Below, in pieces: positions 13,007-14,863 of a DNA stretch of 53,519 nt. Below the pieces are notes generated by a model, which saw nothing but the letters and a program-made list of their open reading frames with translations, searched no databases and was not told the DNA's origin. The DNA is from Candidatus Yanofskybacteria bacterium RIFCSPLOWO2_01_FULL_42_49 (GTDB taxonomy: Bacteria; Patescibacteriota; Minisyncoccia; 2-02-FULL-40-12; GWA2-44-9), in the NCBI GenBank assembly GCA_001795615.1, contig MGKI01000008.1, positions 1-53,519 of the forward strand, in the 5' to 3' direction. A program made the translations under genes and the position numbers. Every line of letters begins with the position of its first letter. The stretch's first letter is position 1.

Positions 13007-14863
13007 ATGACCCACTCGGAAATTAGAAAAAAATTCCTAAAATTTTTTGTGGAAAGAGGACACAAGATAGTGCCTTCGTCTTCGCTTGTGCCGGAGAATG
13101 ATCCGACTACGCTTTTTACCGGCTCGGGCATGCAGCCGATGATGCCGTATTTATTAGGCGAGAAACATCCTCTTGGAACACGCCTTGCTGATTCCCAAAA
13201 AAGCTTCCGCGCAGAAGACATTGAAGAAGTAGGTGATAACCGCCATACTACATTTTTTGAAATGCTCGGTAACTGGTCTTTTGGAGACCCCGACGCTTCG
13301 GATAAGGTCGGGGCAGGTTACTGGAAAAAAGAACAATTGTCTTGGATTTATGAATTTTTAACAAAAGAGGTTGGATTAGATCCGAGCCGATTATATGTAT
13401 CTGTGTTTTCGGGAGGATCAGGAATCAGCCGAGACGATGATTCCATTCAAATTTGGCAGGATATTTTTCAATCTGCCGGCATTTCTTATAAATATTCCCA
13501 ACTGGAAACATTAGAAAAAGCTGGCAACAAAGGTGTGGAAAAAGACGCAAGAATTTTTGGCTATGGAATAGATAAAAACTGGTGGAGCCGTGCCGGAAAA
13601 CCCGAAAATATGCCTGTCGGCGAGCCGGGCGGCCCAGATTCAGAAATCTTCTTTGATTTTCAAACCCCACACGATATAAAGTTTGGCAAAAAATGCCATC
13701 CCAACTGCGATTGCGGGAGATTTCTGGAAATCGGTAATTCTGTATTCATGGAATATAAGAAAAAATCCGACGGAGATTTTGAACCACTGCCTCAAAGAAA
13801 TGTAGACTTCGGCGGAGGACTGGAGAGAATTATCGCCGCATCCAACGATAATTCGGACATATTTAATATCGATGCACTTTATCCAATCATAATAAAAATA
13901 AGGGGGCTGGTACCCAAAGTAGACTCCAGGTCCGAAAGAATTATTGCCGATCACATGCGCGCGGCAACATTTTTAATTGCCGACGGGGTGACGCCTTCCA
14001 ATAAGGTCCAAGGATATTTCTTGAGAAGAGTAATCCGCAGAGCTTTAACTTATGTGAGGAAATCCGGCGTTGAGAATAATATCGCGGCAGAACTCGGAAA
14101 AACAGTCTCTAAAATTTACGAGAAAGAATATCCTGAACTGCAGAATCCCCAGATCGCGGATGTTTTAAATGCCGAAGAATCTAAATTTAGAAAAACCCTT
14201 AACAACGGACTAAAAATCCTGGAGTCAAAAACAGAGATCACGGGAAAAGAAGCTTTTGACTTATTCCAAACCTATGGTTTTCCTTTTGAACTGACTCAGG
14301 AGCTGGTTAGGGTGATGGAGCCGGAAGAGTTCAAAAAATACGCTCTCGAACATTCAGAATCTTCCACCACTGCCTCGGCCGGAATATTCAAAGGCGGACT
14401 TGCCGATCATTCTGAAAAAGTAATTCGTTTGCACACGGCAACTCATCTGATAAATGCCGCTTTGCGCAAGATTCTTGGGGATCAGGTTTGGCAGAAAGGT
14501 TCTAACATTACCGGCGAAAGAACCCGTTTTGACTTTACTCATCCTGAAAAACTTACAGACGAGCAGAAAAAAGAAGTAGAAGATATGGCCAACAAATGGG
14601 TAAAAAGAAATCTTGAGGTCAAAAAGGATATTATGCCGTTGGAAGAAGCCAGAAAGCTTGGAGCGATAGGAGTATTCGGTGAAAAATATCCCGACACAGT
14701 AAATATCTATTCCATCTTGGACCCTAAAACCGGAGAGGTTATCAGCCGAGAATTTTGCGGAGGACCCCATGTTTCTTATACCGGTAAAATCGGAAAAATT
14801 AAAATTACCAAGGAAGAAGCCGTCTCAGCCGGAGTTAGAAGAATCCGCGCAATCGTGGAATAA
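13007..14863 (+). CDS. alaS: Alanyl-tRNA synthetase, short form (no C-Ala domain)
   Basis: Contains [48 protein letters not shown], the editing-domain [11 protein letters not shown] and CGGPHV. It ends right after [11 protein letters not shown]. Confidence 0.92.
   Translation: [618 protein letters not shown]

Follow-up and report, generated by a model that had tools for sequence, protein, structure and literature searches.

A 30-nt in-frame insert with a conserved hairpin at one codon junction of alaS in Patescibacteria

How does a GC-rich palindrome come to lie in frame within a conserved block of an essential gene, and what keeps it palindromic? The case considered here is located on contig MGKI01000008.1 of Candidatus Yanofskybacteria bacterium RIFCSPLOWO2_01_FULL_42_49, a member of the Patescibacteria, and the stretch of 53,519 nt that was analysed is referred to as the window. 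In alaS, the gene for alanyl-tRNA synthetase (AlaRS), ten codons forming a hairpin interrupt an otherwise contiguous motif. An earlier note, made from the sequence alone, had described them as a palindromic insert that preserved the reading frame, and had named Rickettsia palindromic elements (RPEs) as the precedent. From the analyses reported below it appeared probable that the insert belongs to a translated cassette specific for alaS, the hairpin of which is genuinely conserved; the force that maintains this hairpin can be named only tentatively.

The product of alaS is a short AlaRS of the Patescibacteria type with catalytic, tRNA-recognition, and editing domains and without C-Ala. PF01411 and PF07973, representing the class II AlaRS core and the editing domain, were detected by Pfam on all AlaRS homologues. 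AlaRS structures in the PDB matched the window protein down to an E value of 3e-72, and its AlphaFold2 (AF2) model gave target TM (template modelling) scores of 0.78-0.87 with 9jc7, 3hxu, and 1riq, those with catalytic fragments of AlaRS being 0.84-0.87. The insert is located between SFGD and YWK(K) and has a GC content of 67% compared to 43% for the whole gene, in agreement with the GC-richness pointed out before. The arms, the seven perfect base pairs of the stem and the ten extra codons were found exactly where the earlier note had placed them (Table 1). That note had spoken of a 30-nt hairpin; 30 nt is the span of the insert, whereas the hairpin itself spans 26 nt, and three inner pairs within the 12-nt spacer GCTTCGGATAAG between the outer arms had been missed. 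The stem begins with C13288, the wobble base of the Asp codon that immediately precedes the insert. The hairpin alone was predicted to fold with -9.5 kcal/mol as DNA (z -3.45, 0/200 shuffles) and with -14.8 kcal/mol as RNA (z -2.0, 6/200 shuffles).

In the AF2 model the insert is found between strand E83-91 and helix H107-121 with a pLDDT (predicted local distance difference test) of about 70, the neighbouring residues reaching 88-96. According to the model, its ten residues form a loop that connects the final strand of motif 2 to the helix behind it. Exposure of this loop is predicted from the sequence and the same model. No solved AlaRS structure containing the insert was detected in the PDB search.

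Table 1. Positions of alaS and of the elements of its insert in the window
Feature	Position	Strand	Basis or remark
alaS, 618-aa open reading frame	13007..14863	+	PF01411 and PF07973, AlaRS matches in the PDB, AF2 model
Codons 5' of the insert, last strand of class II motif 2 and turn	13253..13288	+	Alignment; AF2 strand E83-91
In-frame insert of 30 nt, CCC GAC GCT TCG GAT AAG GTC GGG GCA GGT, 10 residues	13289..13318	+	10-codon class
Outer stem, 5' arm CCCCGAC	13288..13294	+	Pairs with 13307-13313; alignment columns 18-24 versus 37-43
Inner 3-bp helix, 5' arm CTT	13296..13298	+	Folding; columns 26-28 pair with 34-36
Apical loop CGGAT	13299..13303	+	Folding
Inner helix, 3' arm AAG	13304..13306	+	Folding, covariation
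Outer stem, 3' arm GTCGGGG	13307..13313	+	Folding
Conserved 3' tail of the cassette, GCA GGT	13313..13318	+	Only the first G in the stem
YWKKEQL codons, start of the helix after the insert	13319..13339	+	Alignment; AF2 helix 107-121

The alignment with relatives that had been proposed as a check, comprising 31 sequences, confirmed an in-frame insertion at exactly this point of the SFGD/Y[FW]K block. Among the closest relatives, P0002 and P0003 (90% amino acid identity) and P0004 (84%) read SFGD/YWKK with a clean gap of ten residues, and P0005 (82%) carries PDALDKVGAG at the site. In the DNA of L002 and L003 the empty site reads GGN GAT/TAC TGG. L002, which has no insert, shares 88% DNA identity with the window overall and 95-97% in 90-nt alignment windows over the insert site (alignment columns 91-360), and precisely the 30 nt are missing from it. 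By these comparisons the insertion is real and appears to be recent in the lineage of the window. Since orthologues with 88% DNA identity manage without exactly these 30 nt, the ten-residue loop is dispensable.

The insert-bearing L001 shows only 75% DNA identity to the window, and in an unrooted quartet the window was grouped with L002, and L003 with L001, by 98 informative sites versus 33 and 22 for the two alternatives. Because both the window and L001 carry the insert, and the quartet pairs the window with L002, at least two gain or loss events have to be assumed in this shallow clade of at least 75% DNA identity. The junction GGA GAC/CCC...GGT/TAC contains neither a target-site duplication nor microhomology. 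Two events that could have produced this pattern were considered and rejected: a precise deletion mediated by microhomology, as there is no repeat at the junction, and a recombination tract from an L001-like donor, as no informative sites joining the window to L001 occur at alignment positions 6-519 and the flanks are L002-like. Nor was any sequence found nearby that could have been the template of the original insertion. In a wider set, the motif was located in 118 of the 120 best homologues, and 112 of these 118 are without the insert. It is carried by the window protein, P0005, P0039 (PAAPDKIGTG), P0053, and P0093 (both PASPDGIGK[ST]G), and one further homologue has a different insert of five residues at the same point. 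The cassette is present in about 5% of the close homologues, and these are scattered over the tree.

An exhaustive profile search over 1.84 billion representatives revealed about a dozen more insert-bearing AlaRS types, for example PDAPDGVGAG, PKTADGVGAG, and PQSPDGIGALG, as well as variants of 7-14 residues in AlaRS of the Bacteroidota type; the majority of matches had the contiguous motif. For a search at the DNA level, the degenerate pattern WS[FL]GD-P[DAE]xxDx[VI]G-x(1-2)-G-Y with all third codon positions free was applied to GTDB species representatives and JGI metagenomes. It was matched in 39 GTDB species and 101 metagenome stretches, 140 in total. An assembly artefact, which the earlier note had named as a possible refutation, is excluded, because inserts of this kind are carried by 140 independent genome and metagenome assemblies. 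Nearly all carriers are Patescibacteria, distributed over many classes; the remaining ones are metagenome-assembled genomes (MAGs), one each of Ignavibacteriaceae, Melioribacter, and Chitinophagaceae. The carriers from Ignavibacteriota and Chitinophagaceae possess full-length AlaRS of 872-888 aa. Among culturable groups, Melioribacter types and Saccharibacteria grown in co-culture are carriers. In unrelated AlaRS backbones of three phyla, the cassette is found at the identical junction.

Two classes of the cassette could be distinguished, a 10-codon class, P-[DEA]-x-x-D-G-[IV]-G-[AT]-G, and an 11-codon class, which typically reads PASPDGIGQGG. The positions P, D, G, [IV], and G of the peptide are conserved. 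The variable gap of the search pattern could have been 3-6 nt in length; throughout the family it was always 3 or 6 nt, and not one stop codon was present in about 537 free codons, where about 25 were expected. Both observations indicate that the insert is read as codons. Outside the alaS junction no cassette motifs were detected in 1.04 Mb from 149 loci, and no second copy of the insert exists in the 53.5-kb window.

Inserts of other kinds were also encountered at the SFGD/YFK junction. They are unrelated or shorter and include EKNGG, the 7-residue inserts AENPDAG and PNNESEG in AlaRS of the Bacteroidota type, and inserts of 12-14 residues (P0044, L008:3283-3297; P0165, P0186, P0188, P0159, P0224, P0233, and P0259). 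The insert lengths other than those of the cassette were 5, 7, 12, and 14 residues. As other AlaRS carry unrelated inserts or inserts of other length there, the junction is a general hot spot for insertions and deletions. One match to the insert profile, P0123, was spurious and due to low complexity; this repetitive protein of 1334 aa with about 15 tandem units containing CSPASPDHWFMSTG is unrelated to AlaRS. In the Saccharibacteria locus L009, a 30-nt hairpin, CCTGCCTCGCGACGGATTTTGCGGGGCAGG, is located at 5748-5777, some 85 nt upstream of the alaS start as deduced from a gene model (around L009:5833). It begins like an 11-codon cassette (CCTGCCTCGC) and ends like a 10-codon cassette (GGGGCAGG).

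Silent sites were compared in 44 genes from GTDB representatives with a median pairwise amino acid identity of 52%. Outside the insert, the third positions of conserved four-fold codons showed an entropy of 1.77 +/- 0.19 bit, the minimum being 1.22. In the 10-codon class the codons of the insert gave 0.66, 0.66, and 0.74 bit; those of the 11-codon class gave 0.47-0.92 bit. When all columns were ranked, they took the bottom three places among 47 in one class and the bottom five among 35 in the other. The local suppression of silent change by which a synonymous-constraint element is recognized was confirmed with 63 distinct 10-codon and 57 distinct 11-codon sequences, from which codons were also counted. 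In the 10-codon class, Pro is encoded by CCC (55/63), [IV] by xTC (58/63), and the Gly at position 8 by GGG (57/63), while neighbouring Gly and Ser codons outside the insert make use of all four endings. The Asp codon preceding the insert is GAC in 53 of 63 members of the 10-codon class versus 23 of 57 members of the 11-codon class, in which it has no partner (Fisher p 6.5e-7).

The conserved silent positions of the 10-codon class are the very ones that close the stem, C-CCC-GA(Y)/(R)TC-GGG-G, across which silent third positions face first or second positions constrained by the protein. CCC is opposed by GGG, GAC by GTC or GAT by ATC, and the preceding gaC by Gca. In the alignment, the outer stem columns are paired in 86% of cells. 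Silent changes of Asp track the Val/Ile exchange, GAC..GTC alternating with GAT..ATC (p 0.04), and gaC..Gca alternates with gaT..Aca (p 0.01). In the inner columns, C:G to T:A double changes occurred between lineages. Of the ten pairs of the complete structure, five were changed on both sides, giving a covariation score of 0.152 versus 0.109 +/- 0.012 (0/500 shuffles), a result that is suggestive and not conclusive because related sequences can beat shuffles without any structure.

A folding scan was performed along the gene with 194 windows of eleven codons, in which native sequences were compared to recodings drawn from the codon usage of each gene. The difference in folding energy between native and recoded sequences was -3.6 kcal/mol at the two windows of the insert and -0.11 +/- 0.58 kcal/mol elsewhere (z about -6); nowhere else in alaS is the excess of folding stability as large. 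The loops contribute as well. Native loops were 1.7 kcal/mol more stable than shuffled loops of matched composition in 89% of sequences (p 6e-10), and it follows that lineages keep extending the palindrome with inner pairs of their own. In the window, a GC-rich hairpin of 7 bp is not rare, since 30 were counted versus 6 expected, mostly terminators. The hairpin as such is therefore unremarkable, and it is its coincidence with the insert that matters.

The earlier note had also specified a finding that would speak against its interpretation, namely the same residues encoded by non-palindromic DNA in close relatives. To some extent this was found. In L001, two synonymous changes, gaC>gaT and ggG>ggA, cut the stem to 5 bp without compensation, and L004, in which 4 bp are left, L005, and L006 lack the stem. 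Yet at least six of the seven pairs are kept in 49 of the 63 distinct 10-codon members. The inserted DNA is self-complementary as claimed. Its palindromy is no accident of a single sequence; it is conserved, with signs of covariation, across the 10-codon family. The hairpin thus appears, from these sequence comparisons, to be a conserved property of the 10-codon class.

The same observations bear on another explanation, a chance by-product in which an ordinary loop insertion happens to contain reverse-complementary codons (Pro-Asp ... Val-Gly) without any constraint on DNA or RNA. Some pairing does come free, because CCN GAY and RTN GGN are complementary, and the uncompensated changes in L001 as well as the stemless L004, L005, and L006 speak in its favour. 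However, a perfect stem in the window requires five synonymous choices, with a probability of about 9e-4 given the peptide and the codon usage of the window. Moreover, the silent positions closing the stem stay the most conserved in the gene although the carrier genomes span 27-55% GC, and the control with the flanking Asp codon, the folding scan, and a covariation score above all 500 shuffles point in the same direction. A chance by-product is highly improbable and can be regarded as excluded for practical purposes. The insert may also be compared with the idiosyncratic loops of aminoacyl-tRNA synthetases. It resembles them in being an in-frame insertion at a turn that most orthologues, and all structures solved so far, do not have. 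Conservation of silent positions across phyla would not be expected of ordinary loops, nor is presence or absence of the same sequence among orthologues with 88% identity.

If the hairpin is conserved, the question remains by which force. Tentatively, self-templating at the level of DNA, rather than a selected mRNA structure, is proposed to maintain it. The cassette would have originated as a short palindromic DNA insertion and may have been passed between alaS alleles, or lost from them, by homologous exchange across the near-invariant flanks. The stem would then be kept by quasipalindrome or template-switch correction, by which silent substitutions in one arm are reverted; their counterparts on the opposite arm would alter the peptide and be purged. 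With one base of every pair dictated by the peptide, only the silent base could be restored. The hairpin would need no function for the host, and the peptide would be a loop that is tolerated at the surface and contains a conserved D-G-[IV]-G turn. Quasipalindromes are known as hotspots of template switching that get 'perfected' (PMC7202029), and template switching can create and maintain stems (PMC8794818). With such hairpins, the stems of which can persist without stepwise selection (PMC8794818, PMC7202029), the cassette shares perfect reverse-complement arms and apparent multi-base compensatory changes. Its symmetric G.T and C.A departures are also those expected at the DNA level and, together with the silent sites that face constrained ones, lend indirect support to templating. 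It differs from them in being translated, with one base of every pair dictated by the protein; the mechanism has been described for RNA genes and reporter hotspots.

Somewhat unlikely, but to be taken seriously, is the alternative that the hairpin is a selected cis-acting structure of the alaS mRNA, which could cause a pause after motif 2, affect mRNA stability, or be a site bound by AlaRS, the peptide simply riding along. The lowest silent-site entropy in the gene, the excess folding stability, the covariation, the inner pairs specific for individual lineages, and the predicted energy of the RNA hairpin would all fit such a structure. In addition, AlaRS of E. coli represses alaS via a palindrome at the transcription start (PMC10485164). 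The reported binding of the E. coli enzyme to a palindromic site in the alaS promoter (PMC10485164) makes an autoregulatory site a testable lead. In both cases a palindrome in alaS DNA would be read by AlaRS itself. The E. coli site, however, flanks the transcription start and is non-coding, AlaRS of Patescibacteria is without C-Ala, and binding to the insert is hypothetical.

Other data do not favour a selected mRNA structure. At the six core pairs, departures to G.T and to C.A are equal in number, 12 versus 12, and this equality is not as predicted for an RNA helix of the sense strand, in which G.U should be preferred over C.A. The element is absent from more than 90% of close homologues, including orthologues with 88% identity, so that any function would be dispensable, and the 11-codon class is without this structure. 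Rfam yielded no match up to E = 10 (13150-13450). Neither a conserved slippery site nor a conserved start codon is present nearby, and since the insert is always in frame, frameshifting, bypassing, and an internal start were rejected as candidates. The same applies to a mimic of the tRNA-Ala acceptor stem or minihelix, because the G-run is on the 3' arm, and a conserved G.U pair and an ACCA tail are missing. There is no tRNA-Ala in the window, and aragorn hits in related loci were uninformative. An intragenic terminator was also considered; a U-tract after the stem occurs only in YF variants, 5 nt away. Complementarity to the 3' end of 16S rRNA and the type IIS site GCAGGT were considered as well, and both are presumably coincidental. 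The dispensability of the cassette, its presence in unrelated hosts, and the lack of a bias towards G.U make us lean slightly towards correction at the DNA level.

The distribution of the cassette was further compared to the history of its host gene. The two classes are interleaved on the alaS gene tree. Gene distances are 0.501 both for pairs of the same class and for pairs of different classes, the nearest neighbour shares the insert class in 21 of 39 cases, and the distances of insert and gene are uncorrelated (Mantel r 0.14, p 0.066; r -0.03, p 0.58). The type of insert apparently does not follow the host-gene tree, within the limited power of these comparisons. Silent sites in the flanks vary, without regard to class, as far as the edge of the insert. 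The boundaries of conservation are sharp.

These features could be taken to indicate a homing hairpin, that is, a site-specific, self-propagating mini-element of 30-33 nt moving between alaS alleles across lineages, with the stem needed for transfer. The stem could, for example, join the flanks while incoming single-stranded DNA anneals, or allow escape from heteroduplex repair. Such an element would be sporadic, rare, and confined to one ultra-conserved site of an essential gene, like inteins and homing introns, and it would account for the finding of one cassette, silent bases included, on unrelated AlaRS backbones from three phyla, for the uncoupling of class and host-gene tree, for the two or more gain or loss events in the clade of the window, and for the sharp boundaries. 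The resemblance to inteins and homing introns extends to the incongruence with the tree and to an element more conserved than the silent sites of its host. In contrast to them, the cassette has only 30 nt, no capacity for splicing or endonuclease activity, and stays in frame in the mature coding sequence. No machinery can be encoded by 30 nt, inspection of the neighbourhoods turned up no associated nuclease gene, and there is no co-conversion of flanks. The loop codons are heavily diverged, so that the copies are old and not recently spread, and loss, or recombination with empty alleles, would account for the pattern in the clade of the window just as well. A homing hairpin is therefore considered unlikely. 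The same low likelihood is given to the more far-reaching idea that the cassette represents a new minimal selfish or mobile unit, a gene-less translated hairpin of 30-33 nt which spreads between alaS alleles of distant bacteria, requires only its stem and the flanks of the host, and may relate to a wider, undescribed class of in-frame palindromes such as CTGCCTGCCGGCAGGCAG in genes of Patescibacteria.

The explanation originally offered, a dispersed mobile palindrome like an RPE or an intragenic miniature inverted-repeat transposable element (MITE) that landed in frame in alaS, has to be weighed against the same data. RPEs are about 150 bp in length, form multi-copy families across unrelated genes of one genome, and are translated in frame (PMC10969869). 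The insert shares with them that it is palindromic, with a stem of 7 + 3 bp, GC-rich and in frame, that it is apparently read through, and that it is tolerated by the host protein. The cassette, on the other hand, is 30-33 nt long, present in a single copy, and found at one codon junction of one gene in many genomes, whereas RPEs populate many genes. It has neither a length of about 100-150 bp nor the target-site duplication of a MITE, and microhomology is missing as well. The analogy to the RPE family could not be upheld, as it fails because of copy number, dispersal, and size; the absence of a second copy from the window and from all positions off the alaS junction in the 149 loci is part of this.

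What can be said in favour of a dispersed palindrome is that these lineages do contain one. The 18-mer CTGCCTGCCGGCAGGCAG behaves like an RPE in these genomes, so that the general intuition of the earlier note about this lineage has merit. Counted on the palindrome core CCTGCCGGCAGG, 9 copies occur in 1.04 Mb of unrelated loci versus 0.015 expected. In another alaS, L107:3252-3272 is a proven in-frame insertion of 21 nt (LPAGRQG), elsewhere in the gene and absent from L036, which is 70% identical. As with the cassette at the junction, a GAY codon precedes this insertion, GGT closes it, and host bases in front of it are recruited into the stem. The half-sites CCTGCC and GGCAGG also occur in the cassettes, at the 5' end in the 11-codon class and at the 3' end in the 10-codon class; this resemblance is at the level of hexamers, was noticed post hoc, and is only a lead. 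With these points taken into account, an origin of the insert from a dispersed RPE- or MITE-like element appears very unlikely.

Apart from its relation to the cassette, the dispersed palindrome may be recorded in its own right. As a perfect 20-nt palindrome, CCTGCCTGCCGGCAGGCAGG, it is present twice in the window. The copy at 9574-9593 is inside an open reading frame (ORF; 8372-10204), in which it reads LPAGRQ, and the copy at 25863-25882 is intergenic. The ORF encodes 611 aa with a signal-like N-terminus, five to six Cys-rich modules (C..C..YC......C..FAE..GLM), and a long tail rich in Pro, Gln, and Glu; the palindrome sits in its low-complexity part. Further sites of CCTGCCTGCCGGCAGGCAGG are L107:1831-1850, which provides a second copy in an ORF adjacent to alaS, L107:3251-3272, L006:4977-4996, L079:355, and L068:12987. 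The palindrome looks like a dispersed mini-palindrome able to land in frame. The same arms, CCTGCC and GGCAGG, form the intergenic hairpin CCTGCCTGACCTCCGATAGGCGGGCCGGTAGGCAGG at 21132-21167, just upstream of a gene start, and the pattern CCTGCC-N(0-30)-GGCAGG has five matches in the window versus 0.02 expected. The 18-mer CTGCCTGCCGGCAGGCAG was also encountered in 37 stretches of viral contigs from IMG/VR (L149-L185, e.g. IMGVR_UViG_3300037242_000417, loci L169, L176, L178), in several of them in multiple copies; one viral contig of 29.5 kb contains at least six copies with similar flanks. Since most of these contigs have 60-68% GC and all frames are open, the viral counts are less informative, chance being difficult to assess, and a position inside an ORF says nothing there. 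A literature search yielded nothing on AlaRS insertions at the site of the cassette, on palindromes lying in frame in Patescibacteria, or on bacterial occurrences of the CCTGCCGGCAGG palindrome.

Several observations weigh against the interpretation preferred here, a translated cassette exchanged between alleles and kept palindromic by correction from arm to arm. The 11-codon class is equally conserved at silent sites (CCT GCC TCG CCT GAY GGC ... GGC GGG) without sharing the stem. A stem common to both classes was rejected, as none of three candidate helices in the 11-codon class covaries or shows any two-sided change, and some of the conserved third positions of this class fall in predicted loops. 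Because the 11-codon class is conserved without the stem, templating from arm to arm cannot explain everything. The GCA GGT tail is likewise conserved outside the stem, with A at the first third position in 57 of 63 sequences and T (47/63) or C (16/63) at the second. To judge from the 11-codon class and the tail, something beyond the pairing of arms appears to be conserved. A stem of 6-7 bp with a loop of 12-14 nt is also short for an efficient quasipalindrome hotspot. The covariation is suggestive only, as noted above, and the uncoupling from the gene tree was tested with limited power, because the deep tree is nearly star-like. The diversity of flanking silent sites in both classes gives no sign of recent co-conversion, and L001-like sites are missing near the insert of the window. 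We infer, and do not observe, exchange by homologous recombination, as no co-converted flank is seen. Finally, translation of the insert and exposure of the loop were deduced only from the sequence and the AF2 model.

Some further features of the window were noticed. In total, 224 perfect hairpins of 7 bp with loops of 3-20 nt were counted, compared to 93 +/- 11 in first-order Markov shuffles. Many precede T-runs and resemble terminators, for example 10255-10277, 22541-22563, 38424-38442, and 38465-38485. The hairpin at 38424-38442 is the only other occurrence of CCCCGAC...GTCGGGG in the window and was examined as a possible second cassette; being followed by the T-run TTCCTTTTTT, it is an ordinary intrinsic terminator. 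Upstream of two such terminator-like hairpins, which are arranged back to back, an ORF or region at 37833-38366 is GC-rich in a window of 42% GC and contains internal GC hairpins at 37863, 38050-38073, and 38091-38109. Three tRNA genes, Arg-TCT, Pro-TGG, and His-GTG, are clustered within 1.7 kb at 6303-8031.

If confirmed, the cassette would be a compact natural case of 30 nt constrained both as protein and as hairpin, in which silent bases are pinned by coding bases of the opposite arm. It allows a direct test of whether template switching alone holds a stem over deep time or whether selection acts on a hairpin in a housekeeping mRNA. The separate in-frame palindrome in another alaS suggests that the phenomenon is broader than one site. 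For uncultured lineages, the cassette is of practical use as a sharp marker for recombination and gene flow. Its rare occurrence, incongruent with the tree and spread over three phyla, raises the possibility that short palindromes are exchanged, or repeatedly lost, in essential genes of the ultra-small Patescibacteria.

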